A stretch of 64,000 nucleotides of DNA from a virus (IMGVR_UViG_3300032214_000615), one strand, 5' to 3'. Shown: positions 5,416-36,090, numbered from the stretch's first letter. The notes: generated by a model from the sequence alone, not told the origin. Numbers and translations are program-made.

Positions 5416-5437
5416 GTTTAATACGAGGTTATTTAAG

Positions 5438-6334: not shown

Positions 6335-6347
6335 TATGGAATAAATT

Positions 6348-8663: not shown

Positions 8664-8681
8664 TATTATCAGGAATAATTT

Positions 8682-10004: not shown

Positions 10005-10010
10005 CACATT

Positions 10011-11669: not shown

Positions 11670-11674
11670 CGATT

Positions 11675-13462: not shown

Positions 13463-13645
13463 ATGAACGACGATACTCTTTTTGATTTCAGCAATTTACC
13501 TCCAAAAAAGAAAAAGAATGTTGTAGACGATGTACGCAACATTCTTATAGTTGAATTTCCTGGCGACAAAGCTGGAGAACAACGTGCGAAACAATTGTTT
13601 GAAGAATTGCGTGATCGTGGTTACACATTAAAGATAATGACATGA
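13463..13645 (+). CDS. Hypothetical small protein
   Basis: 60 aa ORF; its stop overlaps the start of the next gene (ATGA). Confidence 0.35.
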   Translation: MNDDTLFDFSNLPPKKKKNVVDDVRNILIVEFPGDKAGEQRAKQLFEELRDRGYTLKIMT

Positions 13646-16956: not shown

Positions 16957-18555
16957 TTGGAAAATAAAATGTCGGACATAAGAAAACTAATAGACTTACT
17001 AAGTGAGTCAAGCGTTGGGGCCACTGCCAGTGGTAATGTTGCCACTGTTGAGCAGTCTGCGTTTACTCAATCTCGTTCTACCGCAGTAGAAGCTTCACCT
17101 GTGCTAGAGTATGGCAACTGGGAAAATAGCGCACTGTCTACTAGTAAAAAGTTAAAGAAGACTCGTACTAAAGCAAGCAAGCTTGTAAAGAGCATTTACG
17201 GCGAAGATGCGATTGTTAAAGAGTCAAAGAGTGATGTGGCGGAAGCAAAATCTCCGGCAGAATTTATTGGACAGATGAAAAAGTTGACCAGCACAGAACA
17301 ACAATTCAACGTCGGTGATTGGGTAACTATTGATCCTAATGAAACCAGTGGGTACGCAAGTAGTGGAATGACAGGACGCATAGTTGAATTATACACCGAC
17401 GAAGGTGAACAAATGGCCAAAATTGATGTTGGCGGAGGCGGTGGTGTGCAAACAAAAATGAAAACTTATGGAGGCACATTTGGGCCACCAGGCACCACGA
17501 TAGGCCTAGGTAAAGGTGTTCGTAGTTATGGCACATATACCGTGGTTCCAACCTCAATCCTGCAAAAAGATGATCCACAAGGTGTGGCGGAAGGCTTAGC
17601 CGAAGCAATTGCGAGTGGTAATTATAGCGTAGGACTAGAGGATATTGGCAAACGAGTAACAGTTAATGGCGATACTGGAGGCAAGACTGGTTATGTGCTT
17701 GTGAGTATTAGATATTCACCACGTGGATTGGACGCAGAAATAGTTGATCGCAAAAACGGCAGTACTGGCTGGTACAACTTGACTGATATTTCAAAGTCAA
17801 ATGATCAACATTTAGGCGAGCAAGGTGTGGCGGAAGGCTCCTTAAATGAGATTGGCTATTCAGACAAATTGGGCAATCTAAATGTATCAGACTCTGAAAT
17901 TATTGCCTCTGCTACACAAGTTGGAACAATAAGTCAGAAACCTGTGATGAAGTATGAAAAGCACAATACTACATTGTTCTTTTTTTCCGATGATGAAAAA
18001 ATTTCAGCTTTGATATTATTAGTTGACGGAAATAAATTACGAGCAATTAAAAATTTCTCTGGACAAGCTGGGCAGATTTATGCTCTGATAAATTATATCG
18101 TAAACATTGACAATAGAAGATTAGTTATAACATCAGACGAGCCATTGACCAAGGAAGGGTTCAACTGGATTGCGAGATTAATCAAAGAGCCGACAGGGAT
18201 AAAAGTATCAACTTTAGATGGAGCATCGGTTGATGTTAAAACATTACACAACGAATGGCTAAAATCTAAATCAACTCGGGGAACCGAATCTGGAGAAACT
18301 GGTTTAGTCATCAGCGAATCATCACAAAAATGGAAAAATAAACTACAAGAAAATGAAACAAGATTAATTCCACATCATTATTTTAATGTTACGAGTAAAT
18401 CCAGAGAACAAGATGTGGCGGAAGAGCAGATTGACGAAGTTGCTGGTGCTCAAAAATGCTGGTCAGGTCATCGTAAAGTAGGCACTCAACCCGGCACTGG
18501 AAAAAATGCCGGTCAGCCAGTCAATAAATGTAAAAAGATATCCAAGTCTAAGTAA
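16957..18555 (+). CDS. Large multidomain (polyvalent-type) protein, putative packaged/internal protein with repeated protease-site-like motifs and basic C-terminus
   Basis: 532 aa. Motifs SDVAEA, QGVAEGLAE, QGVAEGSLNE, QDVAEEQIDE. Contains copy A of the about 150 aa repeated module (IKNFSGQAGQIYALINYIVN...DEPLTKEGFNWIARLIKEP...ETRLIP). Lys/Arg-rich tail. Confidence 0.55.
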   Translation: MENKMSDIRKLIDLLSESSVGATASGNVATVEQSAFTQSRSTAVEASPVLEYGNWENSALSTSKKLKKTRTKASKLVKSIYGEDAIVKESKSDVAEAKSPAEFIGQMKKLTSTEQQFNVGDWVTIDPNETSGYASSGMTGRIVELYTDEGEQMAKIDVGGGGGVQTKMKTYGGTFGPPGTTIGLGKGVRSYGTYTVVPTSILQKDDPQGVAEGLAEAIASGNYSVGLEDIGKRVTVNGDTGGKTGYVLVSIRYSPRGLDAEIVDRKNGSTGWYNLTDISKSNDQHLGEQGVAEGSLNEIGYSDKLGNLNVSDSEIIASATQVGTISQKPVMKYEKHNTTLFFFSDDEKISALILLVDGNKLRAIKNFSGQAGQIYALINYIVNIDNRRLVITSDEPLTKEGFNWIARLIKEPTGIKVSTLDGASVDVKTLHNEWLKSKSTRGTESGETGLVISESSQKWKNKLQENETRLIPHHYFNVTSKSREQDVAEEQIDEVAGAQKCWSGHRKVGTQPGTGKNAGQPVNKCKKISKSK

Positions 18556-19700
18556 TGAAAGCACACGAAATTGTTTCAGAAAGTTGGAGCGAAAAATACA
18601 AACGCTCCATTGACTGCTCTCGTCCCAAAGGTTTCTCTCAACGCGCACACTGTCAAGGTCGTAAGAAAAAAGTAAAAGAAGATATTCCGGTAAATTTAGT
18701 ATTCAACAGTATAGAACTGTCAGAATCTAGCATATCAACATACGCAAAACACTATTACTCAGCGCATCAAATTGAACAATCGCATGTGAAATTTACTTCT
18801 AATGTAAAACTTTTAGGAAAAAATAAATTAGCAGAATCAAAAGAAAATTCAGAAATAAAATCGTTTATAGACGCTATTAATCAACTTGATACTGTAAAAA
18901 AAATAAAAATAGGTGATAAATTTTCTGTATTGGCGTTTGAAATCAGATTTGCCTGGAGAGAAATTGATGCTATGGGATTCATAGAGTCAAAGACAGTATC
19001 AGATATAAACCTCAACGATAACGGAACTATTAACTACGTCATGTTTACTGATGGAGATCGTTATCCTAGACATGTTCAAGCAACTTACAATAATAAACTC
19101 GTAATACACACTGCGTATTTTAATAATTCTCAAGAGGCTAAAAAAGCACTGACATTTTTGGTGTTAAATGTTCCGGATAATTGGGGCTTGGACATTTCGG
19201 AAATAAAAGATGCTGACGGTGTAAATGAGACAAAAGATTCAAGTACGCTTCAAGATGATTTGATTTACATAATTTATATTAATAATCAACCAGTTGTAAG
19301 ACATACTTCTAAAGAAGATGTCGAGCGCGATGTTGCTGTCGTACTAAAAAAGTATCCAACGACAAAAATTGAAATACGAACCAAATCAAAAAATTCAGTA
19401 GAAGAAGATAACAACGGGTTGTCACCAACTACAAAAATGTTTCTTGAAAAAGAACAGATATTATCGACGCTAAATCGCAAACAGCACACAACGGAAGCAC
19501 TTAATTCAGATAATAGACTTCCAGATATTCCAACGACTACAACGTACATACTGTACAAGAATGTTGGAAATGAGTGGAATCCAGTTGCTAGATACCCAAC
19601 TGAAGAACAGGCACGTGACGCTGGTCGCGAAATGGCTCAAGAACTTGGCGGAAAATATCGGGTAAAACAAGTAGAGTACCCGACTACAAAATACGAATGA
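18555..19700 (+). CDS. Hypothetical protein with basic N-terminus
   Basis: 381 aa; start overlaps the upstream stop (TAATG). Confidence 0.45.
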   Translation: MKAHEIVSESWSEKYKRSIDCSRPKGFSQRAHCQGRKKKVKEDIPVNLVFNSIELSESSISTYAKHYYSAHQIEQSHVKFTSNVKLLGKNKLAESKENSEIKSFIDAINQLDTVKKIKIGDKFSVLAFEIRFAWREIDAMGFIESKTVSDINLNDNGTINYVMFTDGDRYPRHVQATYNNKLVIHTAYFNNSQEAKKALTFLVLNVPDNWGLDISEIKDADGVNETKDSSTLQDDLIYIIYINNQPVVRHTSKEDVERDVAVVLKKYPTTKIEIRTKSKNSVEEDNNGLSPTTKMFLEKEQILSTLNRKQHTTEALNSDNRLPDIPTTTTYILYKNVGNEWNPVARYPTEEQARDAGREMAQELGGKYRVKQVEYPTTKYE

Positions 19701-19708
19701 GGTAAATC

Positions 19709-20149
19709 ATGTTAGCAGACGAACTAAAAAAACTACTGGGCACTACCTTTGTGTTGTACACAAAAGTGCATGGCTTCCACTTTAATGTAGAAGGCCCTGA
19801 CTTCCCACAATATCATCAACTACTTGGAGATATTTACGAAGACATTTATTCATCTATAGATAAGATAGGCGAATACATACGCACACTAGACAGTTACACG
19901 CCCGGCAGTTTAGCCCGTATGCTAGAACTCAGTGTCATACAAGAGCAGCCAAAGATACCACGTGCTGAGTTGATGTTTGCTGAACTTATCGAGAACAACA
20001 CGGACTACATTTGCCTGTTGAACGAATGCTTCAAGTGTGCAGACGAAGAGAATCAACAAGGTATAGCAGACTTCATTGCTGGGCGTCTAGATGCTATGAA
20101 CAAACATCAGTGGATGATGAAGGCTATAATGAAGCGTCAGCGGGCGTGA
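19709..20149 (+). CDS. dps: Dps-family (ferritin-like) DNA-protection protein
   Basis: LYTKVHGFHFNVEGPDFPQYHQLLGDIYEDIYSSIDKIGEYIRTL matches the Dps di-iron/ferroxidase helix region (compare E. coli Dps [26 protein letters not shown]). Confidence 0.75.
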   Translation: MLADELKKLLGTTFVLYTKVHGFHFNVEGPDFPQYHQLLGDIYEDIYSSIDKIGEYIRTLDSYTPGSLARMLELSVIQEQPKIPRAELMFAELIENNTDYICLLNECFKCADEENQQGIADFIAGRLDAMNKHQWMMKAIMKRQRA

Positions 20150-20186
20150 TAGATCATGCGTATACAAGAAAGAAAGACAAGAAGGC

Positions 20187-20273
20187 ATTGCCAACTTCTT
20201 AGCAGAAAGATTAGAAGCAATGAACAAGCACGCCTGGATGATGCGCAGCATACTTAAAAAAGAACGAGCATGA
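20187..20273 (+). pseudogene. Diverged duplicate of the last 28 codons of the dps gene, out of frame with dps and ending at the start codon of the next gene
   Basis: Translates to IANFLAERLEAMNKHAWMMRSILKKERA*; the true Dps C-terminus is IADFIAGRLDAMNKHQWMMKAIMKRQRA*. Confidence 0.5.
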
Positions 20274-21292
20274 AAATAGTTGAGTTACTAGAGAACATTA
20301 ATGTAACAGAGGGTGTACATGACCCTGCCATATTCAAAGTGGTGTTCATCATAGGCGGCCCTGGTAGCGGTAAGAGTAGAGTGGCGCATATGCTAGCTTT
20401 AAAATCGTTGGGATTTGTAAGCGTCAATAGTGATGAAGCGTTCTCTCATTTGTTGAAAAAGTCTGGGTTGAATTTAAAGATGCCTCCAGAAGAAGAGGCT
20501 CAACGCAGTAGCGTTCGTGCTAGAGCTAAAGAGATCACTGCTAACAAGATGCAGCTAGCGCTTGATGGGCGTCTTGGTATAGTAATTGACGGCACGGGCG
20601 AAGACTACAGAAAGATAGAGGGCATACACGCTAACTTAAGTGAGATGGGCTACGAGAGTTTCTTGGTAGTGGTCTATGCTAATCTAGAGACTGCCAAGCG
20701 TAGAAATGCTGCCAGAGAGCGCAGCGTACCCGAACATGTTGTTGAGAAGAAGTGGTACGGCGTTCAACAGAACTTGGACAACTTTTTGACGATGTTTGAC
20801 AATAGTGTAATCATTGACAATAATGGTACCGTATCTGATTTGACTCCACAGACCGAGCATGCTTACAAGATGATAGCGCGATGGTCACGAGTCAAATCTA
20901 GCTCACCCGAGGCGCAAAATTGGATCAATGATCAACTTGGTAACGACGATGACGATGATGTTGAAGACGATGATGTTGAAGACGATGATGTTGAAGATGA
21001 AGACATTCCAGAGCCTGAAGACGAAGTTACAGATGAGCCAGTGAAAGAGGGCTATTACAAAAATAAAGTCATAGCACAGCAAGAGTTAATGAATAAGCAA
21101 ACTGGTCAGTGGCCTACAGTTGATAATGCTGTTAGTCAAATAAAACCTAAATTTTGGAATGTAGAGATAAACGGCAAAATTTGGAAAAAATGGCGTGAAC
21201 CTGTTAAGATTCCAGATAGTAGAATAGATCGTGTTATTGATTCCATTCGTGGTCCGCAAGATGTAGTTAAAAAAATACCGGCAAAATCATGA
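20270..21292 (+). CDS. P-loop kinase, most like a polynucleotide 5'-kinase (T4 Pnk kinase-domain-like), with an acidic low-complexity insert
   Basis: Walker A VVFIIGGPGSGKSRVA followed by VSVNSDEAF (compare T4 Pnk GCPGSGKST ... NVNRDDYR). Acidic DDDDDVEDDDVEDDDVEDEDIPEPEDE tract. No HAD phosphatase motif. Confidence 0.5.
   Translation: MKIVELLENINVTEGVHDPAIFKVVFIIGGPGSGKSRVAHMLALKSLGFVSVNSDEAFSHLLKKSGLNLKMPPEEEAQRSSVRARAKEITANKMQLALDGRLGIVIDGTGEDYRKIEGIHANLSEMGYESFLVVVYANLETAKRRNAARERSVPEHVVEKKWYGVQQNLDNFLTMFDNSVIIDNNGTVSDLTPQTEHAYKMIARWSRVKSSSPEAQNWINDQLGNDDDDDVEDDDVEDDDVEDEDIPEPEDEVTDEPVKEGYYKNKVIAQQELMNKQTGQWPTVDNAVSQIKPKFWNVEINGKIWKKWREPVKIPDSRIDRVIDSIRGPQDVVKKIPAKS
20945..21004 (+). repeat. 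Three tandem 15-nt repeats (GTTGAAGACGATGAT) encoding VEDDD units
   Basis: Direct reading of the sequence. Confidence 0.8.
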
Positions 21293-21708
21293 CTAATTGG
21301 ATGGAATACGTCAAGGCAAGTTATGACTTGATTATGTTGGCTCAGCAACGAGCGTCTACTGAGTTAGACTATGATGTTGGCGCCTTTGTTGTTCATACAT
21401 TTGCCAAGTATATGACCACCACTATTAGAACAGAAGAGCCAGTCGCAATCAAATTATTGACCGCTGTAAACAGTACTGGTGAATTGCGCAAACAACGCCT
21501 GATAGAAGTATCTGAAGAGTGCATGTTGATTGACGGACTTGAATTAAACAAGTCTCGTTGGGTAAGCAATGACTACTATCAGAACATTGGTATCATCGCA
21601 CTAGAGCATCGTGCATATAGTGAGCGTCCCCCAGAGTTACTTTACGATAGAATCGCTCAACAATTCAAAGACATTTCCAGAGTATTACATGCTGTAAGAT
21701 TAGTATAA
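21289..21708 (+). CDS. Hypothetical protein
   Basis: 139 aa ORF, translationally coupled (ATGA overlap) to the upstream gene. Confidence 0.45.
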   Translation: MTNWMEYVKASYDLIMLAQQRASTELDYDVGAFVVHTFAKYMTTTIRTEEPVAIKLLTAVNSTGELRKQRLIEVSEECMLIDGLELNKSRWVSNDYYQNIGIIALEHRAYSERPPELLYDRIAQQFKDISRVLHAVRLV

Positions 21709-21719
21709 ATACTAACAGC

Positions 21720-23102
21720 ATGAATATATTTGAAGTTATTGCTGGCAAAACTATTACTCTAAATCGCCTATACGGAGGAAATTTTCCTGATCGTTACGAA
21801 GATTTTTGGGATCATGTTCGTTCGCATGAGCTTGATAAAGAATTGCCAGTTAGAGTTCTACCAGCGTTTAATTTAAAATTACTATTGACTAGTCAATATC
21901 GTAAAGAAGATATTGATGAAGTGTCAGAACTATTAAATGATGGACAGCGAGATATTATCAATCGCTATCAGAAGGACCCACAACTCAGCAGTAAGATAAT
22001 AGTACTGTCTGGCAATAGAATTGTGGATGGCAATCATCGTGCTCTAGCCGCCGCGCTTAACAATGTAAGTATTAATTATGTTGATCTAGCAGACTTGGAT
22101 GAACAAGATGTGACTGAAGATTCTCTAAATGAAGTCAGCAAAGACTGGCGCGAAAGAAGTTCAGCGGAAGATAAGATAGGAAAGATAGCGTCCAGCCGCG
22201 AAAGATCGGATCAATTTACGATTGACGACATAAATGAAGTAAAAAGACTGATCAAAATTACAGGGCGCGCCTCAGTTATTTACGGAGGCAAAGAATATAA
22301 TAGGCTAGGAACAGCGGGCGGTATTTTAGATCATATGATTCATAACTATAGATTGAATCAAGCAAAATCTGGAGCAATGCCACAATTTACTGGAGTCGCA
22401 GCCAATGCTCGTGATATGGCCCGACAAATAGCAATGCAGACTAATGGAGATTATAATCAAAAATATGCCAGAGTATGGACTACTGGATACGGACAGAGAT
22501 ATAAAGACCCATCTGACTTTGTTGAATATAAAACTGAAGAAGACTATGATAGTGCCTGGGACTGGGTACAAAGCAAGGGCAAAAAAGTTTACTACTATGA
22601 TAATTTCAAGCATCTAAACACTGCTATAAAAATTGGAAGATATATAGTTGAGCCAGCTTCAGTTACCAGAGGTGTGTTTAGTGGTAATCCAGAAACAACA
22701 CATCAACTTAGTGTAAGAACGGCAGCAGTGATAAATCAAGCAGTTAGAAGACAAGCGGATATATCAGATCAACAAGCAATGGCACTCAAAGATATTGCTG
22801 CTACTAAAAACGCAAACGCTTTAGAAGGACTTAAACTTTTAATGAGTGTTCTTAAAGGTGAAGAAGACATTAAGAGTGTTATTGATAACTCTAAAAAGTT
22901 AGATCCCAAAGACAAGGCAAAGTTGGATGCCATAATTGCCGGCGCCAAAAATTTTAAAGAACCCGATCAAGATATAGCGGAAGCACGAAAGAAAAAGCGT
23001 AAACGCAAAGTGAATCGTACACCAAGAAGCATAACCACTGGATGGTGGGGTGGCTTTTACGGTGATAATAGTTCAGACGGCGAAGGTGGGGGTGGAGAGT
23101 GA
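21720..23102 (+). CDS. ParB-like nuclease-domain protein (polyvalent-type)
   Basis: IVLSGNRIVDGNHRALAAAL fits the DGxHRxxA core of the ParB/sulfiredoxin fold. Followed by QDVTEDSLNE motif and a basic KKKRKRKVNR C-terminal region. Confidence 0.5.
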   Translation: MNIFEVIAGKTITLNRLYGGNFPDRYEDFWDHVRSHELDKELPVRVLPAFNLKLLLTSQYRKEDIDEVSELLNDGQRDIINRYQKDPQLSSKIIVLSGNRIVDGNHRALAAALNNVSINYVDLADLDEQDVTEDSLNEVSKDWRERSSAEDKIGKIASSRERSDQFTIDDINEVKRLIKITGRASVIYGGKEYNRLGTAGGILDHMIHNYRLNQAKSGAMPQFTGVAANARDMARQIAMQTNGDYNQKYARVWTTGYGQRYKDPSDFVEYKTEEDYDSAWDWVQSKGKKVYYYDNFKHLNTAIKIGRYIVEPASVTRGVFSGNPETTHQLSVRTAAVINQAVRRQADISDQQAMALKDIAATKNANALEGLKLLMSVLKGEEDIKSVIDNSKKLDPKDKAKLDAIIAGAKNFKEPDQDIAEARKKKRKRKVNRTPRSITTGWWGGFYGDNSSDGEGGGGE

Positions 23103-24430
23103 GAGCAAGTGAATTCACTAAGCAAGATGTGGCGGAAGGCTCGTATAGAGAAGGCGGTAGTATTACACACGATGGAGTAGAATATGATTTTGATAGGGTA
23201 ATGAGCATAGCAGAAAAATTGCCTACTAAGACTTGTTCTGTTGATAAACTCTCTTGGATACTCAAATACGATACTCCGAACAAAGAGCGTCTTGAACGTG
23301 CTGACATAACAGTTCCGTTAATAGTCACAAAGAGTTCTAATGGCAAATTAGCAGCAATAGATGGTTTACATAGATTGGCAAAAGCAGTTAGAGATAATGT
23401 AAAGACGTTGCCAGTGAAATATGTAAGTCCAAAGATGTTGCCATCAGCAAAAATCAGCAAGCAAGGCGTGACGGAGAGCATTCAACATAATTCACAAGAC
23501 CTAAAAGATGTGGCAGAATGGATGAGTACTACGTCTGACAAACTCAATATCGTAGTAAAGCAAGAACCAATTGAAAAGTTCATCAAACAAATTCGTGAGA
23601 TGTATGGCACTTACGATGAATTTCCAGAAGATGAAGAACGTACTAATCGTATTTTGAAGTTATTGAAGCGTGGTGCTAAACCACTACCTATGTATGTAGA
23701 AGCCAATGATCCAGACTTATTTGTTATGGAAGGTAGACATAGAATGGTGGCATTCTGGTTAGCAGGTATGAAAACTATTCCAGTTGCGTATGTTAGTGTA
23801 AAAGATAAGCAAGATGTGACGGAAGATAATGTGGTCAATGAAATTGATTATGCTTCAACACTAGCAAATCTTTCTATGTCTGATCAACAACTTATAAAAT
23901 CTTCATCTGTCGTGGGTACAATTGGATCTAGAGAAGTGTTTTTATTTACACAGGGAAATTCTAGAATTTATTTCTTTAAAGATAATGACGCTATAGACGC
24001 ATTAGTCTATCTATTCAAAAATCGTTTGCTAGGCATTAAGAATTATTCACGTAACAAAGGCTTGGTTTATAATTTATTACAGTACATTGTAAATATGAAT
24101 CGTGAGTCAATTAAACTAACGGAGATAGATAAACTAACTCCTGATGGAATACAGTGGATATTGCGACAAATTAAAACTTCAAGTGATTTTGTGATTACGG
24201 ATCAACGAGGAAATAAAATAGATTCGTCTAATCTATATGATGAATGGGAATTAGCAAGAACTTCTGGAAAACATGGATCAACTGAAATAGTAATTGCCCC
24301 ATCTGACAATAGAAAAAACATCAGAGAAAATGAATCGCGACTGATGCCCATGGATATTTGGGGAGCAACATTAAAAACTACTTCATCTAATGTTGTTGAT
24401 ATTAATACGTTATTAGAGATGACATCATGA
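23099..24430 (+). CDS. Protein with two ParB-like motifs plus repeated module copy B
   Basis: LAAIDGLHRLAKAV and FVMEGRHRMVAFWLAG. Motifs QDVAEGSYRE, QGVTESIQHN, KDVAEW, QDVTEDNVVNE. Module B (IKNYSRNKGLVYNLLQYIVN...TPDGIQWILRQIK...ESRLMP). Confidence 0.5.
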   Translation: MRASEFTKQDVAEGSYREGGSITHDGVEYDFDRVMSIAEKLPTKTCSVDKLSWILKYDTPNKERLERADITVPLIVTKSSNGKLAAIDGLHRLAKAVRDNVKTLPVKYVSPKMLPSAKISKQGVTESIQHNSQDLKDVAEWMSTTSDKLNIVVKQEPIEKFIKQIREMYGTYDEFPEDEERTNRILKLLKRGAKPLPMYVEANDPDLFVMEGRHRMVAFWLAGMKTIPVAYVSVKDKQDVTEDNVVNEIDYASTLANLSMSDQQLIKSSSVVGTIGSREVFLFTQGNSRIYFFKDNDAIDALVYLFKNRLLGIKNYSRNKGLVYNLLQYIVNMNRESIKLTEIDKLTPDGIQWILRQIKTSSDFVITDQRGNKIDSSNLYDEWELARTSGKHGSTEIVIAPSDNRKNIRENESRLMPMDIWGATLKTTSSNVVDINTLLEMTS

Positions 24431-26904
24431 GATTAAAAGAATTTATCAATAAACATCATGTAACGGAAGACTCATTGAATGAGTTTTCTATCAATCGCGG
24501 AGATGGAGACGATGACGATGATAATAATCGAGGCCCGGGATTAACTCGTCAAGAATTTAAGAATGCTCTAAAACTTGCTCTAGGGTATGATATGAATGGA
24601 GTAAATGTGTCTACTTTTGAAGGCGGCATGCTCAGAGTTGAGGTAAATGGTGAACGACGAATAGTTCCATGTAATAAATTAGGCGTCAAGGATGCTGCTA
24701 ATTTTATAAAAAGAATAAAAAACCAAGGTGTGACAGAAGGCTCATTGAATGAATTAGCACCAAGTTCAGGTGGTCGCGATGATATACTAAAAACTTTGGC
24801 CGCACAATGGCTTCATGGTGATATAGCCAGTGGTGATTTGAGTAGTGATACTCAATCACAAGAACAAGTCGAGCGCAGATTAGAAAAAGGTATTGTCTGT
24901 CCAGATGGTGCGAAGCGTAAACTTTATATTGACTACAGTGATGATTATGAGGGTGTTGTAATTTACAGTGACGATGATTGGAGTATTACTTATAAGCAGG
25001 ATGACTTGAGTGAATCTAAACAAGGTGTGTCGGAAAACGGCGTTAAGGCTGATATAGAAGAATACTCTTTAAAAGAAATAGATTATTCTTCTGAATTAGA
25101 TTCTACAAATTTTTCGCACAGCAAAGTTATAAAACTTGGAGTAGTTGATGGTCAAATAGACGGGCATGATGTTATGAAAGCATCGTCTGGTGATCAAACA
25201 GTATATTTTTTACTATCTAATGATAGTAAAGTATCAGCCTTTTTAGGTTTTAAAAATGGATACTTGAAGAACATTAAAAACTTTAGTGGTGCTTCTGGAT
25301 TAATCAGTGCGTTGGTGGGTTATGTGGTTCATATTAAAAAAGAAAAGATAAAAATATCTCCAGATGAGCCTATGACTGAATCTGGCATCAAATGGTTATC
25401 TAAGCTAATTAAACAGCCACGTGGATTAACTATAACAAATCAGCGCGGTGAGTCAGTTGATGCAGAAGCGTTAAAACAAGAATGGTCAAACGCAAAAAAC
25501 ACTGGAGCTGCGGGCACTACTGGTATTACTATTAACGAAAATTTTTCGTTTGGTAATAAAATAAGACTTAACGAAGAGTCAAGAAAACAAGACTCTATAC
25601 TTATGCCACATAATTTTTACATAAGTCGGAAAGAGGTGGCGGAAGACTCATTGAATGAGTTCGCCACTAGCGGCGACGATGACAATAGACCACAGCGTCC
25701 GATGTTATTAGCAGATGTTGCCAAAATAATCAAGGCAAAATTAGGTCCAGGTTGGACTATGGAACATGTTGGTAGAACTGAACAGCCAGGATACAAATTC
25801 ATTCCAACAGATAAGACAAAACACGGAATGGCTAAGATTTGGTGCTTAGTAGATTGGGATAAGGTGGGTGAATATCCAACTTACAATACAATACTGTATT
25901 CATTCCAGAATGAAAATGGTAGACTGATGGCTCATGGTCGACACACAGAACGAGCAAAATCTAAAACCGTTTCCAACGCATTAGTGACAGCGCAAACACT
26001 ACTTGGAAATACTGATGGAGCATTAAAAGATTCGGTGACAGAAGACACAGTTGACGAAATGACACTCAAAACCTATAAGACTATGGGTGACTTTAGTAAG
26101 CCAGGACCATTCAAAGACCCAGATTACAAATTAGTCACACATCCAGTTCACATACAGAAGGTAACAGATTTCTTTCAACGCGTTCCACACGATTTTCGTT
26201 TCTTCATGAGCAATCTTCCCGGTATGAGAAAGTATCAAGAAAGTGGCGAGAAAACTCCGCAAGAAATACAACAAATGTTTGGCGAAAAAATAGCCAGAGA
26301 AATTCTGCAAGATACTGAAGATGCTATTACTGTTATTTATATTGGAAATTACGGTCAGAATAAGGTAATGATGTCTCCGCATACTATGGCACATCGTGTT
26401 GGTCATGCTATTACTGCCGCTGGTAGATACGAACGTAGCAAAGTAATTCCGGAATGGACTGAATTATACAATCATTTTTTCAATCAACTTAAAAAAATAG
26501 TAGTAGACTGCTATCAACGACCAGAATCTAACAGATATGATTACTTTACCACTAGACAACAAAGTGTCGATATGGAAGCAAAATATATGGCACTAATGTA
26601 TCAGATTGGGACCCTAAAGAGTAGTCGTGAGCGTAATCTAAATAACACATACGAATTCTTGTATGAAATGTTAGCGCAATATATTAGAACAGGCAAAGTA
26701 ACTCTAAATCCATTGCCAATCAGCGCTGGTTACGGTCGTCTAGTTGGTTGGAAGACAAAATCATTTCAAAAGTATATACGCATAAATTCCGAATGTAGTG
26801 ATGAGCTTTATCGCACTGAAGTTACACAACGATTAGCAAGAGATATGGGAATATTATTCGGGCAAGTATTAGGTGGTTGTGTTGGTAAAATATTTGTGAT
26901 GTAA
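24427..26904 (+). CDS. Large polyvalent-type protein with repeated module copy C and five motif copies
   Basis: 825 aa. HVTEDSLNEF, QGVTEGSLNEL, QGVSENGV, EVAEDSLNEF, SVTEDTVDEM. Module C (IKNFSGASGLISALVGYVVH...DEPMTESGIKWLSKLIKQP...DSILMP). Acidic GDGDDDDDNNRG tract. Confidence 0.5.
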   Translation: MRLKEFINKHHVTEDSLNEFSINRGDGDDDDDNNRGPGLTRQEFKNALKLALGYDMNGVNVSTFEGGMLRVEVNGERRIVPCNKLGVKDAANFIKRIKNQGVTEGSLNELAPSSGGRDDILKTLAAQWLHGDIASGDLSSDTQSQEQVERRLEKGIVCPDGAKRKLYIDYSDDYEGVVIYSDDDWSITYKQDDLSESKQGVSENGVKADIEEYSLKEIDYSSELDSTNFSHSKVIKLGVVDGQIDGHDVMKASSGDQTVYFLLSNDSKVSAFLGFKNGYLKNIKNFSGASGLISALVGYVVHIKKEKIKISPDEPMTESGIKWLSKLIKQPRGLTITNQRGESVDAEALKQEWSNAKNTGAAGTTGITINENFSFGNKIRLNEESRKQDSILMPHNFYISRKEVAEDSLNEFATSGDDDNRPQRPMLLADVAKIIKAKLGPGWTMEHVGRTEQPGYKFIPTDKTKHGMAKIWCLVDWDKVGEYPTYNTILYSFQNENGRLMAHGRHTERAKSKTVSNALVTAQTLLGNTDGALKDSVTEDTVDEMTLKTYKTMGDFSKPGPFKDPDYKLVTHPVHIQKVTDFFQRVPHDFRFFMSNLPGMRKYQESGEKTPQEIQQMFGEKIAREILQDTEDAITVIYIGNYGQNKVMMSPHTMAHRVGHAITAAGRYERSKVIPEWTELYNHFFNQLKKIVVDCYQRPESNRYDYFTTRQQSVDMEAKYMALMYQIGTLKSSRERNLNNTYEFLYEMLAQYIRTGKVTLNPLPISAGYGRLVGWKTKSFQKYIRINSECSDELYRTEVTQRLARDMGILFGQVLGGCVGKIFVM

Positions 26905-26936: not shown

Positions 26937-29474
26937 ATGAGTTTAAATTTTGACGATCAATTATCTATAACTGAAGCAGAAATGTCCCCCAGTGCATTTA
27001 GCGGAGCATTACAGCAGGGTGAAGTTGATCGCGTGCTTGTTGGGTTTGAATTTGAATTCTGCATGCCTAAGAGCAAAATTAAAGAACTCACTGCGTCTAC
27101 AACTACTACCACTACTTCAACTGAAGAAGAAATATTTCAACAATTACGACGAACAAATTTGTTACACTATACTCCATACGGCAGTATTAATCTAGCTAAT
27201 TTTAATAAATGTTTTAAAGTAAAGCCTGGATTTAAATATCCTACTCTTGGTATGGGATTGCGTGGCTATATAGATGCCACGATTGATAAGTGTATTAAAA
27301 TATTCTATGAAATTCCGGAAGAAGAGCGAGCTAGAATTTCTAAAGTGGCTCTTAAGAAATTACGAGAACAGGGCGCAGCACAAATGCTTAATGTAGGTAC
27401 TTTTTGTGTTATTAGCGCGGCAAAATTATTAAGATATAAAACAGATCAGATAGCTTATCTAAGATATTTTTGCCAGGAAGCATCGCGAGAGCGTACTATC
27501 CCCATGCAATGGAGTAACTCTAAGTATAAAAAAATTATAGATTTAATTTATGGTCGTTTAATAACTTATAAATTTTTATTATATTTTATTACTGGAGCAT
27601 CTCAAGAAAGAATCGTACAAAATCCACAAGATTATTTAGATATAGTATCAATTGACGCTGCCAACAACATCTTATCTGTCAGTGAGCGTGCTACTGGTAG
27701 TTCATATATGGATTATGCTAAAGCTGTTTCAAAACTATGTCAGAGTTATGTTAAAAAGACGCCAATAATATTCATTCGTCGTCATGAAAGACCAAAAAAT
27801 CTAGTAGATTGGTATATTGAGCCTGATGGTAGTGTTATACCCACTGATTCTGAACAGGGAGGAGAATTAGTTAGTCCGCCGTTTAGGCCTGCTGTTGCCA
27901 TGGATATGTTAAAACAGTTTTACGCCATGTCTGTAGAGGGACAATTTAATGTAAGCAAAGCTAGAAAAACTGGACTACATATAAATGTCAGCATACCTAA
28001 GAAAATTGATTTGTTAAAGTTGGCAATATTTACAGCCGATGATCGTATTTTGACTCAATTTGATAGACAGAATTATGACTACGCTGTCAATGTAATGAAC
28101 AGTTTAAAACAATCTTTATCTAGTAATACTAAATTAAAAAACGACGCTAGAGTTGATAGTGATAAGGTATTGTCACGGATTGAATCTATTGCCAAAGGAA
28201 TAATGAAAGATCACACTGCCAGTATCAGTTCTGAAAACAAAAACTATATTAGTTTTCGCAGCGTTGGATTTGATTATTTAAGCCCCGGGCAGTTTAAACA
28301 TGTTGTAGATGCTGTTGGACGATTTGTTCGCGCTATAATTATTGCCAGCGACCCAGACGCATATCGTTCTGAGTATCTAAAGAAATTACAAGACTTGCTT
28401 GAAACTAATATACCAAAAAAAGAAAATCTGACAACTTCAGAATTAATAAATCTGTATCGTAATATAAAACAAAATGGTATACCAGCAATCAAAACAATAG
28501 CATATCTTACTAAAAATAATAAAAAAGCAGCAAATAAAATAGATTATTTTGGAAGCATGCTTCTTCATCTTTCTGGTTTAACCCAGCGATCTTATAAACC
28601 TAAAGAAATAATTAATACTCCAGTAAGAAATGCCACTGACGAAGAAAAGAACTTATTAACGACTACTATTACCGCCAGCAATAAACCGGCAAACATCAAT
28701 GCCACTGTTGATAAAATTAATGATCCAGTCGCAACTATAAAAACTGTAACGCTAACTGCTTCAAAAAACCCAGAAATATTAATCAAAATTATTAATATGG
28801 CTGATTCAGTAGTTAAATTACAACAAACAATGACAATGACTTACTACACTGGTGTAGAGTATCTAGGATATGGTGGTTGGGGATTAGTACAACCAACTAG
28901 AATACCCATAACAGATGATCCAGCAACTACCGATATATTAAAATACTTGAAGAGACAAATAGAAAAATCAAAAGAAACGACAAAAAAACTTAATTTACCA
29001 GAAATGATTCAAGAAGAATTAGATGTAAATAAGATTTATTACTTTGCGTATGGTATGTTGACCGACGAGAGCAAAATGAAACACTTGAACGCCAAGAAAA
29101 TAGGCAGAGCAGTACTATCTGATTTTAAATTGGAATTATTACAGCATGCTAATATCGTCAAAGAATCTGGATCAAAAGTTGTGGGTGTACTTTGGGAAAT
29201 AGATAAAGACGCACAAGATGTCTTGGATCAGATTGAGGGTTATCCAGTATATTACAATAGAATAGTAGCATCAGTAAAAACAGATACTGATGTGGTAGAT
29301 GCCGAAGTTTATATTATGACCGATCAATCTCGCAAACATTCATATGAACACGGATATCCTACTCAGAGATACGTAGATGACATAGTTCGTGGATATCGTG
29401 CCGCACGAATTAATATAAATCAGCTAATCACTGCTCTAAATGAATTAAACAGTAGACTTGACGATGAAAAGTAA
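26937..29474 (+). CDS. Amidoligase (glutamine-synthetase-like fold, Amidoligase_2-type) fused to a C-terminal gamma-glutamyl cyclotransferase (GGCT/AIG2-like) domain
   Basis: N-terminal VGFEFEFCMP (ExE ligand motif), GGELVSPP, TGLHINVS. C-terminal YYFAYGMLTDES...KVVGVLWEIDKDAQDVLDQIEGYPVYYNR (GGCT pattern YGSL...G.LY.I....LD..EGY...Y.R). Confidence 0.55.
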   Translation: MSLNFDDQLSITEAEMSPSAFSGALQQGEVDRVLVGFEFEFCMPKSKIKELTASTTTTTTSTEEEIFQQLRRTNLLHYTPYGSINLANFNKCFKVKPGFKYPTLGMGLRGYIDATIDKCIKIFYEIPEEERARISKVALKKLREQGAAQMLNVGTFCVISAAKLLRYKTDQIAYLRYFCQEASRERTIPMQWSNSKYKKIIDLIYGRLITYKFLLYFITGASQERIVQNPQDYLDIVSIDAANNILSVSERATGSSYMDYAKAVSKLCQSYVKKTPIIFIRRHERPKNLVDWYIEPDGSVIPTDSEQGGELVSPPFRPAVAMDMLKQFYAMSVEGQFNVSKARKTGLHINVSIPKKIDLLKLAIFTADDRILTQFDRQNYDYAVNVMNSLKQSLSSNTKLKNDARVDSDKVLSRIESIAKGIMKDHTASISSENKNYISFRSVGFDYLSPGQFKHVVDAVGRFVRAIIIASDPDAYRSEYLKKLQDLLETNIPKKENLTTSELINLYRNIKQNGIPAIKTIAYLTKNNKKAANKIDYFGSMLLHLSGLTQRSYKPKEIINTPVRNATDEEKNLLTTTITASNKPANINATVDKINDPVATIKTVTLTASKNPEILIKIINMADSVVKLQQTMTMTYYTGVEYLGYGGWGLVQPTRIPITDDPATTDILKYLKRQIEKSKETTKKLNLPEMIQEELDVNKIYYFAYGMLTDESKMKHLNAKKIGRAVLSDFKLELLQHANIVKESGSKVVGVLWEIDKDAQDVLDQIEGYPVYYNRIVASVKTDTDVVDAEVYIMTDQSRKHSYEHGYPTQRYVDDIVRGYRAARININQLITALNELNSRLDDEK

Positions 29475-30228
29475 TGAATTTTTATCGGAATCTCAAGCAG
29501 GATTACCCGATGACTTACAAAAAATACTGTCCGAAAAGGGATACCGTTATATAAATGCGGGCGCTGAACATACTGTATGGTTGGGTCCAGATGGATTCGT
29601 ATATAAGATAATGCCTCCCAGATTTATCAAAGAAGAAACCGCAAAAAAATTACAAATGGGCAGTAAACGCCCAGAAGATGTGTATGTGACTAAAGCTCAA
29701 CAATGCTTTATTGATTGGGTTGAATACTGTCAAAATCATCCCAATAATAAATTTCTACCATTCTTTGATGATTGGAAACCATATATACATGAGTTCGTAA
29801 GAGACAATAAAAAGTATTACTACTTCTATATTCAATGTAGAACCGAACGATTATTCCCATTACACGATTGGAAAAAACTTACCTGGGCAGATACTGATTT
29901 AATTACTGGAGAAATTGATTGGGGTCAAGCACTTAGTGAGATAGCATATGATATTGCCTATGGTATGTCAAAACAAGGTTTTATTAAAAGATTGAAGAAT
30001 GGTGCTGCTAGACAGGGAACATATCAAGTCGTTAGTCATATGGGAGATCAGCGAACACTAACACTGTTTTATGATACCATTACTGATTTGATTCGTATTG
30101 CCACTAATAAAGGATACAGACTTGATTTACACAGTGATAACTTTATGTTGGGCAGTGATGGACATATAGTTATTAATGACCCATTCTTTATTAGATACGC
30201 ACCCGAAAACGATATGTATAGCAGTTAA
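29458..30228 (+). CDS. Protein-kinase-like fold protein (atypical kinase)
   Basis: INAGAEHTVWLGPDGFVYKIMPP (Gly-rich strand and VxK lysine), catalytic-loop-like DLHSDNFMLGSDGHIVINDPF (HxDxxxxN ... xxD). Confidence 0.45.
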   Translation: MTMKSNEFLSESQAGLPDDLQKILSEKGYRYINAGAEHTVWLGPDGFVYKIMPPRFIKEETAKKLQMGSKRPEDVYVTKAQQCFIDWVEYCQNHPNNKFLPFFDDWKPYIHEFVRDNKKYYYFYIQCRTERLFPLHDWKKLTWADTDLITGEIDWGQALSEIAYDIAYGMSKQGFIKRLKNGAARQGTYQVVSHMGDQRTLTLFYDTITDLIRIATNKGYRLDLHSDNFMLGSDGHIVINDPFFIRYAPENDMYSS

Positions 30229-30256: not shown

Positions 30257-31696
30257 ATGCGCGCACGAGAAATACTAACAGAAACCGTTGAAGAGCAACA
30301 AAACATTGTAACAATGGCTAAAAACATAATTAAATGGCACTCAGAAAAAATAGGCGATATGTCGTCTCTATTAAAAAATAGAAATAATATATCCTCTCAA
30401 TTATACAATGAATCAGAAGATGATGATATTTCAGACGACGAATTACTTTCAATAATGAATCGTGCTAGGAACAAAGCCAAGAAATCAGGAATTGATGATA
30501 TTGATATCTCAGACGACGAATTACTCGCCATTATGAACAAAAATAAAATGGCGAAGTTTGATTATGATAATTGGTTAAACAGGCCTATACGTCTAATTGA
30601 TGTAGTCGGTTCTGGCCCGTGGACGCCAACTGTTAACGATTGGTTAAGCACAAATCCTACAATAATATTTGCCACAGAAGACAATTCTTCTTTGAAAATT
30701 AGAAAGGACGCATTACAAAAATTTTGGGGATGGTGGGATTCTACGCTTAATCATATTGTTATTAACTGCGCGATGCGGCGACCGGTTTCTTCTTATCTAT
30801 CGACGATTGTTCATGAGCTTCAACACGGGTTGGATTATTATAAGTCTAATTCTCTTGCAGGACAACGCTCTCTTGCAGGACGAGGTGGATCAGCAACACG
30901 AGCCAAACAAGAAAAAGAGGACATCTCAACTATAATAGCGGCATTCAAAAACGCAATAGATAGAATTCCAAGTTCCGGGCTTTACATCAAAGATATTATT
31001 ACTTCAGACTCGTTACAATCAACAATCTTTAAAAATCTTGTAAATGATCCCGAGATTGCTTCTATGAAAATAGAATCGCCAGAGAGTGAATACTCAGATG
31101 AAATGCAGGCGGATCGTTATCTTGATCTTGATATTGATAACAAGTCCGGTACGTATCTAATGTTTTACTGGGTAATTGAAGCGTTGCTAATTGGTTCAAC
31201 TAAAGATTTTCTAACAAAACTAGAAAATACTTTAAATGAATATCGTAATTCATACTATAAACCTAGAGCCGGCTATAGTAACGCAGTAAAACAAGGCTCT
31301 CTTGAATTAGATAAAAACCGCAGCGAATATCTGAGTAAAAATCATGAAATAAATGCCAGAATTTCTCAAGCATTTCACGCTATTATTGAACGTCTAACTC
31401 AACAAAATTTTAAAGGTTATTCAAAAAATAAAAAAACAGCAGAACTACAGCAGAAAGAAATATCCAACGTTGTTAACGCAGTTTATAGTAGTTACCATAT
31501 TAATGGTAGTTTATTTCCGGAACGAATTCGCGAAGAAAGACTTAGACGATTACAAAGAAGACTTCAGCAGTATATATTGGCTCATTTTCCGGAAAATAGT
31601 AACATCATTCCTAAGGCCATCATTCCGCGACGTAATGATGACGTTAGAAAATTACTCTCGCTATTAGGCCCAGAAGGTTTAAAAAATATAAAATAA
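30257..31696 (+). CDS. Putative zincin-like metallopeptidase (single HExxH)
   Basis: STIVHELQHGLDYY. Also acidic repeated ISDDELLSIMNR / ISDDELLAIMNK units near the N-terminus. Supported by one motif only. Confidence 0.3.
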   Translation: MRAREILTETVEEQQNIVTMAKNIIKWHSEKIGDMSSLLKNRNNISSQLYNESEDDDISDDELLSIMNRARNKAKKSGIDDIDISDDELLAIMNKNKMAKFDYDNWLNRPIRLIDVVGSGPWTPTVNDWLSTNPTIIFATEDNSSLKIRKDALQKFWGWWDSTLNHIVINCAMRRPVSSYLSTIVHELQHGLDYYKSNSLAGQRSLAGRGGSATRAKQEKEDISTIIAAFKNAIDRIPSSGLYIKDIITSDSLQSTIFKNLVNDPEIASMKIESPESEYSDEMQADRYLDLDIDNKSGTYLMFYWVIEALLIGSTKDFLTKLENTLNEYRNSYYKPRAGYSNAVKQGSLELDKNRSEYLSKNHEINARISQAFHAIIERLTQQNFKGYSKNKKTAELQQKEISNVVNAVYSSYHINGSLFPERIREERLRRLQRRLQQYILAHFPENSNIIPKAIIPRRNDDVRKLLSLLGPEGLKNIK

Positions 31697-32554: not shown

Positions 32555-32814
32555 GTGATTCAATGTCTGCTCATCGCGACGATCTTCGTGAGTGGAATGA
32601 ATTTTGTGAAAAAACTAAAATTCCACTTAGTTGGAGAGTCTATAGTCCGGACTCAATGTGGGCAAGAAGATTTCATAATGAACGTGGGTTAGTGGGACGA
32701 GAATTAATGTTGGCTGTAAAGCAAGAACTAGAAACTATAGCTCTTAAACAGAAACACGCCACTCAGCAACAAGAGCTTAAGCAGTTAATTGAATTGGAAA
32801 AGAAGTATCAATGA
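32551..32814 (+). CDS. Hypothetical small protein
   Basis: 87 aa, translationally coupled on both sides (ATGA overlaps). Confidence 0.4.
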   Translation: MSDSMSAHRDDLREWNEFCEKTKIPLSWRVYSPDSMWARRFHNERGLVGRELMLAVKQELETIALKQKHATQQQELKQLIELEKKYQ

Positions 32815-35291: not shown

Positions 35292-35332
35292 TTTTAATTC
35301 TTATTTAGTAAAGCTCCATAAATATATTTATC

Positions 35333-36061: not shown

Positions 36062-36090
36062 ATAATCTATGGAGATAGAAGTATCAGCAT

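Follow-up and report, generated by a model that had tools for sequence, protein, structure and literature searches.

The window (the whole 64,000-nt stretch of DNA analyzed, from virus IMGVR_UViG_3300032214_000615) contains four large ORFs, A, F, G, and H, as the initial annotation had proposed (Table 1). ORF A comprises a capsid-protein-like N-terminal segment, two small domains, a GNAT-like module, and a Cys-containing basic tail. ORF F consists of a ParB/Srx-like motif domain (21720-22094), a junction, a conserved domain of ~290 aa, a second junction, and a tail. ORF G starts with a leader, after which junctions precede each of three domains: ParB-like 1 (23141-23455), ParB-like 2 (23486-23803), and a GNAT-like module. 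ORF H also begins with a leader, and five junctions then alternate with two small domains, a GNAT-like module, a further domain, and a C-terminal domain of ~280 aa. The basic C-terminal tails described earlier for several proteins are present in ORFs A and F, and the Cys mini-module of the ORF A tail is also seen in T4-like cyanophages and in homologues. No close relative is in culture, and 50,697 phage records included no match to ORF A, F, or H. In homologues, the same domains are arranged in different orders.

Table 1. Features of the multidomain ORF cluster and neighboring genes (slash, predicted cleavage point)
Feature	Coordinates	Strand	Remarks
ORF A	16957..18555	+	532 aa; ATG at 16969; junctions V94, V210, V291, V487
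LLSE/SSVGATASGNVATV	16996..17049	+	ORF A N terminus; resembles capsid-protein maturation site and N-arm
A94 (SDVAEA)	17230..17247	+	junction copy
A210 (QGVAEG)	17578..17595	+	junction copy; exact 18-mer
A291 (QGVAEG-SLNEI)	17821..17838	+	junction copy; exact 18-mer
GNAT-like module copy 1 (ORF A)	17842..18411	+	
A487 (QDVAEE)	18409..18426	+	junction copy
ORF A C-terminal tail	18430..18552	+	short; past last junction; Cys mini-module (CWSGHRKVG...NKC) and basic end
ORF B	18555..19700	+	381 aa; leader MKAHEIVSE, then mini-module WSEKYKRSIDCSRPKGFSQRAHCQGRKK
ORF D	20270..21292	+	zeta-toxin/AAA_33-like kinase; leader MKIVELLENINVTE/G
D12, ORF D leader	20297-20314	+	junction-like copy
ORF F	21720..23102	+	460 aa; junctions F131, F419
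F131 (QDVTED-SLNEV)	22104..22121	+	junction copy
F419 (QDIAEA)	22968..22985	+	junction copy
ORF F tail	22989-23099	+	Lys-rich / aromatic-Gly / GGGGE
ORF G	23099..24430	+	443 aa; GTG start; three junctions (G11, G124, G240)
G11 (QDVAEG)	23123..23140	+	junction copy, immediately 3' of leader MRASEFTK
G124 (QGVTES)	23462..23479	+	junction copy; left breakpoint of domain replacement vs contig L247
Exchangeable cassette (ParB-like 2)	23480..23809	+	L247 has unrelated 298-nt domain instead
G240 (QDVTED)	23810..23827	+	junction copy; right breakpoint of ParB-like 2 replacement vs L247
GNAT-like module copy 2 (ORF G)	23831..24412	+	
ORF H	24427..26904	+	825 aa; junctions H12, H102, H201, H404, H537
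H12 (HHVTED-SLNEF)	24454..24471	+	junction copy following leader MRLKEFINK
ORF H domain cassette	24486..24777	+	in window; missing from 99%-identical L247
H102 (QGVTEG-SLNEL)	24724..24741	+	junction copy
H201 (QGVSEN)	25021..25038	+	junction copy
GNAT-like module copy 3 (ORF H)	25066..25632	+	copy used for modeling
H404 (KEVAED-SLNEF)	25630..25647	+	junction copy
H537 (DSVTED-TVDEM)	26029..26046	+	junction copy
Kinase-like neighbor gene	29464..30228	+	T4-CTS-like leader MKSNEFLSE/
Neighbor gene	30257..31696	+	leader MRAREILTE/
Distant gene	43930..46206	+	leader MRYKDFYTELVNE/; one domain in common with ORF 26937-29474

The junction reads (K/E)Q(G/D)V(A/T)E(G/D), with 14 copies spread over the four multidomain ORFs (16957-26904) and a 15th in the ORF D leader. 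At least 14 in-frame copies had been claimed, and the 15 junction-like sites that we found lie at domain boundaries. A six-frame scan of the window for [GDHES]V[ATS]E[GDEN] in context returned 12 matches, all on the + strand, 11 of them in the four ORFs and 1, a weak one, in ORF 21289; looser copies raise the total to 15. No match was found in the three minus-strand frames or in the other ~54 kb of the window. As to occurrence elsewhere in the genome, the motif was absent from the rest of the 64 kb except for the weak match, which falls outside the junction set and probably reflects chance. When residues 1-230 of ORF H were modeled with AF2, overall confidence was low (mean pLDDT, 49), and pLDDT was <50 exactly across the three junction segments.

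The paralogous module previously described as about 150 aa long does occur three times (A273-496, G237-434, and H189-413; 34-37% mutual identity), with a length of about 185-200 aa. It has no Pfam match, and its structure model shows a GNAT-like alpha/beta fold; its region KNF(S/T)xxxG bears only a loose likeness to the acetyl-CoA motif Q/R-x-x-G-x-G/A. The module also exists as a stand-alone protein of ~190 aa. A suggested packaging or targeting role thus found no support, since a module with a GNAT-like fold is unlike a dedicated targeting domain. As for the three reported DGxHRxxA motifs, two contain DGxHR, and the third reads EGRHR. The N terminus of ORF F carries a ParB/Srx-like motif only. 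For the two ORF G domains, ParB-like matches of weak to moderate strength were obtained: residues 15-119 matched genes of Erwinia and Salmonella jumbo phages with a ParB annotation (E, 1e-9 to 1e-16), and residues 168-239 matched phrog_1033 and phrog_723 (E, 0.002-0.009). The homologue of ParB-like 1 in PA5oct, EST35_0140, bears the annotation "structural protein, ESI-MS/MS," which marks it as a virion protein detected by mass spectrometry and indirectly favors packaging.

At the DNA level, the junction consensus (K/E)-Q-G-V-A-E-G, often followed by S-L-N-E-F, corresponds to the 18-mer CAAGGTGTGGCGGAAGGC. Its conservation, noted before, was borne out: with ≤3 mismatches, the 18-mer occurs six times in the window, compared to 0.02 times in shuffled sequences, and all six copies are on the + strand and in frame. 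More than 100 copies are present in uncultured jumbo phages, whose longest contigs are about 335-343 kb. In the 491 kb made up of the window and related loci, we collected 106 context-distinct copies (≤3 mismatches), every one of them (106/106) on the coding strand and in one shared frame of the longest ORF. Codon choice within the 18-mer was strongly skewed: Ala was encoded by GCG in 66 of 73 copies, whereas the background across these ORFs is 7% (P about 6e-68), and other synonymous sites showed GTG in 60/64 (background, 20%) and GGC in 52/63 (background, 30%). The adjoining SLNEF codons are under no such constraint. Protease recognition cannot explain this nucleotide-level constraint on the junction. 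Most simply, the 18-mer is nearly fixed even at synonymous sites because it serves recombination as a short homology.

Among related phages, the ENA contig L247 matches window positions 23120-26903 at 98-99% identity, with two exceptions. Between G124 and G240, L247 carries an unrelated domain, and identity ends and resumes inside the motif; in addition, one ORF H domain is missing, with breakpoints adjoining H12 and H102. Among 43 internal endpoints of DNA alignments with ≥88% identity, 51% lay ≤10 nt and 70% ≤20 nt from a junction copy, compared to 1.3% and 2.7% for random positions. Likewise, 20% of protein homology breakpoints were ≤5 aa from the motif, compared to 4.4% at random. The clustering of breakpoints and the replacement and deletion in L247 therefore demonstrate that domain cassettes are exchanged in frame at the junction, which is very probably a recombination junction. 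The nucleotide-level constraint and the role of the junction as a breakpoint for domain swapping are new relative to the initial annotation.

The motif had also been read as a hydrophobic-x-Glu sequence preceding a small or acidic residue, and its core proved constant and in keeping with the gp21 rule. T4 gp21 cleaves at L/I-x-E, T4 core proteins undergo many cuts each, and Alt is trimmed at each end (PMC9026906). Across the 106 copies, Glu is invariant at position 5, and position 3 is always V, M, I, or L, in contrast to the variable remaining positions; at the sequence level, V/I/M/L-x-E is kept in 15/15 window copies, and V..E persists in those whose DNA has drifted (QDVTED, HVTED, EVAED, and SVTED). 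Other lineages with the same GNAT module have different junctions (VNE/ASGYIP, FSGAIAE/, and P[MI]NE/[ST]) that share the core. Furthermore, in related jumbo phages, the major capsid protein bears a presumed N-terminal maturation site and N-arm, LLSE/SSAGTTTAGNIATL, which the N terminus of ORF A resembles; this pattern is found in 119/120 capsid proteins and once in the six-frame translation of the window. Related head modules also include a gp67/68-like prohead-core ORF, which contains ..SGVAE/AEDD and ..QGVSE/DEDE. By eye, these sequences resemble T4 gp67 NFLIE/GEEPEDED. A gp21-type protease gene adjoins the portal and capsid genes in the nearest cultured relatives (PA5oct, Phosso, Atu_ph07, Vibrio 2.275.O, and SCTP-2); for the ~341-kb source genome, the link to such an enzyme comes from relatives at about 47% polB identity. 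Together, the sequences give about an even chance that the junction is a prohead-protease cleavage site.

The leaders point in the same direction. The T4 capsid-targeting sequence (CTS) is MKTYQEFIAE (PMC8442874). The leaders MRASEFTKQDVAE/, MRLKEFINKHHVTE/, and MKSNEFLSE/ of genes in the window closely resemble it, as do MKSTEFIKE/ and MRAKEFISE/ in relatives. Their common form, M-[KR]-x-x-E-F-hydrophobic-x-E, spans ~10 aa and, judged by similarity only, ends in a predicted cleavage site. Such leaders are enriched in the cluster (7/12 genes, compared to 4/77 elsewhere; P = 3e-5), with a pattern that is incompletely specific, since a dCMP deaminase (31698) fits its first half. A Dps/ferritin-like gene in the cluster has no leader.

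Instead of being cut, the multidomain proteins might stay intact, the junction acting solely as a recombination linker, i.e., a flexible spacer and shuffling homology. We regard this as possible but rather doubtful. It fully explains why the nucleotides are constrained and where the breakpoints fall, and it agrees with the finding that none of the capsid, scaffold, and portal proteins encoded in 80 related head modules contains the full QGVAEG motif. It does not readily accommodate the invariance of Glu and the hydrophobic residue where other positions vary, nor the hydrophobic-x-Glu/small pattern shared by the unrelated junctions of other lineages. Moreover, junctions sit after a 9- to 14-aa N-terminal leader, ahead of the first domain, and precede very short C-terminal tails, which a mere linker would not predict.

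Cleavage by another protease (an S8 subtilase, a host protease, or a polyprotein domain), not necessarily in the capsid, is improbable. A subtilisin-like Peptidase_S8 gene does lie 4 kb upstream, at 11675-13096, but it is located among tail-fiber-like genes, and subtilases typically do not require Glu at P1. Processing of polyvalent proteins by embedded peptidases has been proposed (PMC5512222); however, a survey of 66 polyproteins revealed no peptidase domain, and the leaders and the hydrophobic-x-Glu core specifically fit the T4 system. Quite improbable, too, is that the 18-mer is an RNA or DNA signal, such as a two-tetrad G-quadruplex or an SD-like pause site at which ribosomes slow between one domain and the next, or a site bound by a phage protein (e.g., the ParB-like domains). 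The pattern GG-TGT-GG-C-GG-AA-GG is compatible with a G2 quadruplex, and the strongest synonymous constraints (GTG and GCG) fall on third positions that make GG doublets. Nonetheless, such a structure is predicted to be only marginally stable (-1.4 kcal/mol, not exceeding alternative folds), the constraint on GGT, GGC, and CAA is left unexplained, and the G pattern has disappeared from many window copies that still keep the peptide core. Folding gave no stable hairpin, searches found no antisense partner, Rfam match, or tRNA, and the 18-mer is not palindromic, unlike parS.

On balance, we lean toward exchangeable-cassette cargo proteins whose recombination junctions double as prohead-protease sites. 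The region would encode cargo proteins built of cassettes: ParB/Srx-like domains, three modules with a GNAT fold, several domains whose fold is unknown, and short peptides that are basic or rich in Cys. Each cassette is flanked by one in-frame junction, and it is here that related phages swap, insert, or delete whole domains in frame. The T4-like capsid-targeting leaders would load the proteins into the prohead core, where a protease of the T4 gp21 type could cut after the Glu of hydrophobic-x-Glu. The products would be single domains and small peptides, probably ejected along with the DNA. Similarly, in polymorphic toxins (CdiA VENN and Rhs DPxGL), a short conserved peptide borders constant and exchangeable toxin domains, and the Rhs DPxGL junction is a proteolytic site as well. 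Unlike the proteins described here, those toxins have one junction per protein, belong to bacterial secretion systems, and have only the C-terminal tip swapped.

Several phage systems share part of this organization. Like the T4 internal proteins (IPI-III and Alt), which carry a CTS and are processed by the gp21 prohead protease, the proteins described here have a short leader (MRxxEF-hydrophobic-x-E, compared to T4 MKTYQEFIAE) (PMC8442874), follow the hydrophobic-x-Glu rule, differ in gene content among relatives, and are putatively delivered with the DNA (PMC9026906, PMC8442874). Unlike in T4, the sites are internal, with up to five per protein (8-11 at most in homologues), and the junction, with its putative cleavage and packaging, is longer (6-11 aa), lineage specific, and DNA conserved. 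The label "polyvalent protein" applied earlier reflects only a resemblance. Polyvalent proteins are long and join unrelated enzymatic domains, including those of ParB/Srx type (Iyer et al. 2017, PMC5512222); here, ORF G combines ParB/Srx-like, GNAT-like, and unknown domains, and DUFs and canonical GNAT domains are further components of relatives' polyproteins. For the polyvalent proteins, packaging and injection have been suggested, and processing into units has been proposed (PMC5512222). That class is defined around a metallopeptidase and other hallmark domains, with no conserved linker described (PMC5512222), whereas here the junction is the defining feature, and neither the four ORFs nor 66 homologous polyproteins matched a Pfam family for such domains (zincin-like MPTase, virion RNAP, ART, SNF2, and others).

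In T4-type phages, short conserved PeSL repeats flank nonessential modules, and through recombination between these repeats, near-identical phages come to differ by inserted, deleted, or replaced modules (Arbiol et al. 2010, PMC2839356). The locus shares this trait: where a module is replaced in one of two near-identical phages, a short repeat lies at the breakpoints. PeSLs are intergenic promoter and stem-loop units that shuffle whole genes (PMC2839356), whereas the junction is intragenic, translated in one frame, and shuffles protein domains. The phiKZ-like phages (e.g., SPN3US), also giant, extensively process their head, inner-body, and ejection proteins; they have an essential prohead protease that cuts head proteins and eject many packaged proteins into the host cell; they are another lineage, for which the available portions of these sources report no repeated DNA-conserved junction or cassette exchange (PMC5694885, PMC7411985, PMC10052503). 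If the proteins described here are cut at their internal junctions, one gene would give rise to many products. A giant phage builds several large proteins of interchangeable cassettes by means of one short DNA-conserved junction, which is putatively a site for the capsid-maturation protease as well.

Four large ORFs of the window (A, F, G and H) had been described in the initial annotation as carrying a recurring peptide, and this is borne out: all four are real, and 15 junction-like sites, looser copies included, were found for a (K/E)QGVAEG-type peptide that is often followed by SLNEF (here, the junction). A six-frame scan returned 12 strict copies, all on the plus strand and 11 of them in these four ORFs, whereas the minus-strand frames had none, nor had the remaining ~54 kb of the window. 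The claimed conservation at the DNA level also held, since the 18-mer consensus encoding the junction, CAAGGTGTGGCGGAAGGC, is matched with ≤3 mismatches six times in the window versus 0.02 expected, each time in frame. The domain layout is very regular, with a junction at every recognisable domain border: ORFs G and H open with a 9- to 14-residue leader directly followed by a junction, and ORFs A and F close with a last junction and a short C-terminal tail. Self-comparison confirmed three copies of the repeated GNAT-like module (one each in ORFs A, G, and H; 34 to 37% identity), although its length is about 185 to 200 amino acids rather than the ~150 first proposed. The C-terminal domain of ORF H had no sequence match to solved structures.

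Features of the window and their coordinates
Coordinates	Strand	Feature	Details
18-13096		Tail-fibre-like genes	Flank the cluster
5438-6334		Peptidase_G2-type gene	In the tail-fibre-like block
8682-10004; 10011-11669		Adjacent paralogous tail-fibre-like genes	N-termini nearly identical (MPLVVGQSY...ITGATSA)
11675-13096		Subtilisin-like Peptidase_S8 gene	In the tail-fibre-like block, near the cluster
13642-14763		ABC-type ATPase P-loop plus GNAT-like C-terminal part	Immediately upstream of the cluster; phrog_11143, E 1.5e-73
16957-18555	+	ORF A	
16996-17049		Pattern in the ORF A N-terminus	LLSESSVGATASGNVATV
17578-17595		18-mer	GG-TGT-GG-C-GG-AA-GG, as in all consensus copies
18450-18552; 18582-18670		Two small Cys-containing mini-modules	CWxGYxKxG...NC (Pfam DUF3008-like); WSEKYKRSIxCxxPKGFSQRAHCQGRKK
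21720-23102	+	ORF F	
22989-23099		Recurring mini-peptide after a junction	Lys/Arg run, aromatic-Gly stretch (GWWGGFYG / GGYFFPGYAYYG), acidic Gly tail ending GGGGE
23099-24430	+	ORF G	
23120-26903		Region shared with L247	
24427-26904	+	ORF H	
24486-24777		First domain of ORF H	
26937-29474		ORF ending in a gamma-glutamyl cyclotransferase domain	Shares a ~200-aa domain (34% identity) with 43930-46206
32811 onward		Replication genes	Flank the cluster
32811-38015		Split DNA polymerase gene	N-terminal part, 32811-34427
34422-35291	-	Zinc-finger, homing-endonuclease-like ORF	Interleaved with polymerase fragments
~35333-36061; ~37026-38015		DNA_pol_B plus intein-splicing fragments	
36091-37050		Zinc-finger, homing-endonuclease-like ORF	Interleaved with polymerase fragments
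43930-46206		ORF with a leader resembling a capsid-targeting sequence	

Comparison with the ENA contig L247 showed that the junction is a recombination breakpoint. The two DNAs are 98 to 99% identical over the shared region and differ at two places. A ParB-like domain of 330 nt, located between junctions G124 and G240 (ORF letter and residue) in the window, is replaced in L247 by an unrelated 298-nt domain that is also seen in protein P0011; identity is lost inside the left motif and regained inside the right one. The first domain of ORF H is missing in L247, with breakpoints immediately after H12 and H102. Among 43 internal endpoints of DNA alignments (≥88% identity) among the loci compared, 51% lie within 10 nt of an 18-mer copy (random, 1.3%) and 70% within 20 nt (random, 2.7%). 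Likewise, 20% of protein homology breakpoints fall within 5 residues of the motif versus 4.4% at random.

The junction motif is characteristic of a phage lineage. Metagenomic data contained 25 homologues of ORF H, which are multidomain proteins with up to 8 to 11 copies of (K/E)QGVAEG in which the same domains are reused in different orders; P0002, for instance, combines the ORF F C-terminal domain with the C-terminal domains of ORF H. A degenerate DNA pattern for QGVAEGxxNEF was found in 38 IMG/VR contigs of up to 342,865 bp, with 1 to 8 copies per ORF, and a full-text literature search found QGVAEG in such a context in no paper. Pfam assigned a few GNAT domains, DUFs, and almost nothing else to 66 junction-bearing proteins, and PHROGs returned mainly unknown families plus three labelled "virion structural protein." In a full HMMER search, the GNAT-like module occurred in 221 protein clusters, at any position of a polyprotein or as a stand-alone protein of ~190 amino acids. 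Other lineages (P0305, P0310, and P0314 to P0329, protein sequences only) flank it with different repeated junctions, namely, VNE↓ASGYIPS.KEKNDPRF, ENFSGAIAE↓, and P(M/I)NE↓(S/T), where the arrow stands after Glu; therefore, junction motifs seem to be lineage specific, with hydrophobic-x-Glu in common. The GGGGE mini-peptide (also in P0010, P0012, P0017, and P0024) lies at C-termini or between junctions, and both Cys mini-modules also occur in multimodule proteins from T4-like cyanophages and from a Pelagibacter phage, which lack the QGVAEG junction.

Codon usage was counted in 73 context-distinct copies from IMG/VR loci against the background of the same ORFs. Alanine was encoded by GCG in 66 of 73 copies versus 7% in the background (P ~6e-68), valine by GTG in 60 of 64 (20%), the last glycine by GGC in 52 of 63 (30%), the first glycine by GGT in 65 of 73 (46%), and glutamine by CAA in all 54. 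Third positions of the core carried 1.1 to 1.9 bits, and those of the partly conserved downstream SLNEF <0.45 bit. Moreover, all 106 distinct copies found in 491 kb (≤3 mismatches) were on the coding strand and shared one frame relative to the longest ORF. Protease recognition cannot produce such a synonymous-site pattern, and the constancy of the 18 nt is most simply read as the outcome of continuing recombination or gene conversion at this site.

Other explanations at the nucleic acid level were also considered. ORF G encodes two ParB-like domains, and the copies could form a parS-like array for them; since every copy stands in one reading frame at a domain border, this was not accepted as the main reading. 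Internal translation starts at GTG or TTG were rejected, as the Leu codon is not conserved and the spacing to Shine-Dalgarno-like sequences is poor, and no explanation by a tRNA or known RNA was found. The 18-mer has a two-tetrad G-quadruplex pattern, and the GG doublets are created by its most constrained synonymous positions (GTG, GCG); the pattern fits, but the predicted stability is marginal (only about −1.4 kcal/mol), and a G-quadruplex was not retained.

Besides recombination at the junction, prohead-protease cleavage there, as first proposed, is plausible but unproven. Across the 106 copies, Glu invariably occupies position 5, and position 3 is always one of V, M, I, and L, although the remaining positions vary; this agrees with the L/I-x-E rule of T4 gp21 (PMC9026906). 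Window copies that have drifted at the DNA level (QDVTED, HVTED, EVAED, and SVTED) retain V..E; thus, the peptide is constrained too. The peptides KQGVAEGSLNEF and MRLKEFINKHHVTEDSL are candidate protease substrates with a putative cut after Glu. The core proteins of T4 undergo many cuts, and its Alt protein is cleaved at each end (PMC9026906); the T4 capsid-targeting sequence is MKTYQEFIAE (PMC8442874). Leaders resembling it (MRASEFTKQDVAE, MRLKEFINKHHVTE, MKSNEFLSE, and MRAREILTE in the window; MKSTEFIKE, MRAKEFMKE, MRFKEFVIE, and MRAKEFISE in relatives) are enriched in the cluster (7/12 genes versus 4/77 elsewhere, P = 3e-5), and a dCMP deaminase gene matches the leader pattern in part. The N-terminus of ORF A (LLSE↓SSVGATASGNVATV) is similar to the presumed capsid-protein maturation site and N-arm LLSE↓SSAGTTTAGNIATL of related jumbo phages, a site that aligns with the T4 gp23 N-terminal region. 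Its pattern occurs once in the six-frame translation of the window and in 119 of 120 capsid proteins. This N-terminus may be a capsid-binding or coprocessing mimic. Upstream of the protease gene, related head modules have an acidic ORF with SGVAE↓AEDD, TGMAE↓GEDEE, or QGVSE↓DEDE, which by eye resemble NFLIE↓GEEPEDED of T4 gp67. In PA5oct, the homologue of ParB-like domain 1 carries an annotation as a virion protein based on mass spectrometry, and a gp21-type protease adjoins the portal gene in all cultured relatives checked (PA5oct, Phosso, Vibrio 2.275.O, Atu_ph07, and SCTP-2). An AF2 model of ORF H residues 1 to 230 was weak (mean pLDDT, 49), and its three segments below 50 fall on the three junctions. 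In the 80 related head loci closest to PA5oct, full QGVAEG was absent from capsid, scaffold, and portal proteins, and none of these protease-profile loci lay on a motif-bearing contig.

The window comes from a jumbo phage. The B-family DNA polymerase fragment that it encodes is ~47% identical to the polymerases of Pseudomonas phage PA5oct, Sinorhizobium phage Phosso, Agrobacterium phage Atu_ph07, and Vibrio phage 2.275.O, and a 341,154-bp metagenomic contig encodes an identical polymerase protein (P0146, polB). Pieces of the window phage are present in Logan assemblies of run ERR2848492, and an exact 44-mer taken from the window had no occurrence in IMG/VR. Among 50,697 phage records, the region had no DNA match, and tblastn of ORFs A, F, and H had no match in cultured phages; therefore, no virion proteome is applicable. 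The neighbourhoods of three homologues on long contigs contained no head genes. The MSKVLLESRWDETKEALLEGLKG... capsid-protein type (loci L048 to L127) is extremely abundant in public metagenomes, with a match in all 8000 candidates scored; the best 120 of 8000 are 86 to 98% identical to the query, on contigs reaching 314 to 356 kb, and several samples with this type also have motif-bearing contigs.

Like T4 internal proteins, the cluster proteins have, as read from sequence, a leader and a gp21-type site; unlike them, they have many internal sites per gene. With respect to shuffling, the closest likeness is to the modular exchange mediated by PeSLs in T4-type phages (PMC2839356), for which circular excised cassettes were found, except that here the exchange takes place inside genes and in frame. 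The suggested "polyvalent protein" theme holds as a likeness (PMC5512222), but the hallmark peptidase of those proteins is absent. Altogether, the DNA-conserved in-frame junction with domain exchange is a more solid and more surprising result than the protease reading.

It is conceivable, though we consider it rather doubtful, that a dedicated, selected system is built around the junction, in which an 18-nt recombination signal, possibly enzyme recognised, coincides with a protease site for domain shuffling and processing. A ~340-kb phage population would then shuffle injected-effector domains as cassettes through an in-frame signal possibly recognised by a phage enzyme, and the same six residues would later serve as the protease site freeing each domain inside the capsid, so that evolvability and processing would both be encoded in one short sequence. 

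As a translated linker with constrained synonymous sites, the junction offers a clean, testable case in which one set of six codons is under selection at both the DNA and the protein level. If the main reading is right, that of exchangeable cassettes with probable cleavage at the junction, the 18-mer or its lineage-specific equivalents offer a simple sequence tag for such cargo in metagenomes, where nearly all of the domains are unannotated, and the arrangement points to a design rule by which one gene could deliver several foreign proteins to T4-type capsids. On the same condition, the junction is a natural plug-and-play device for protein domains, fixed itself while any domain can be swapped in frame between genes or genomes; it then probably directs the capsid protease where to cut, and it would account for how giant phages diversify the proteins that they carry into the cell.
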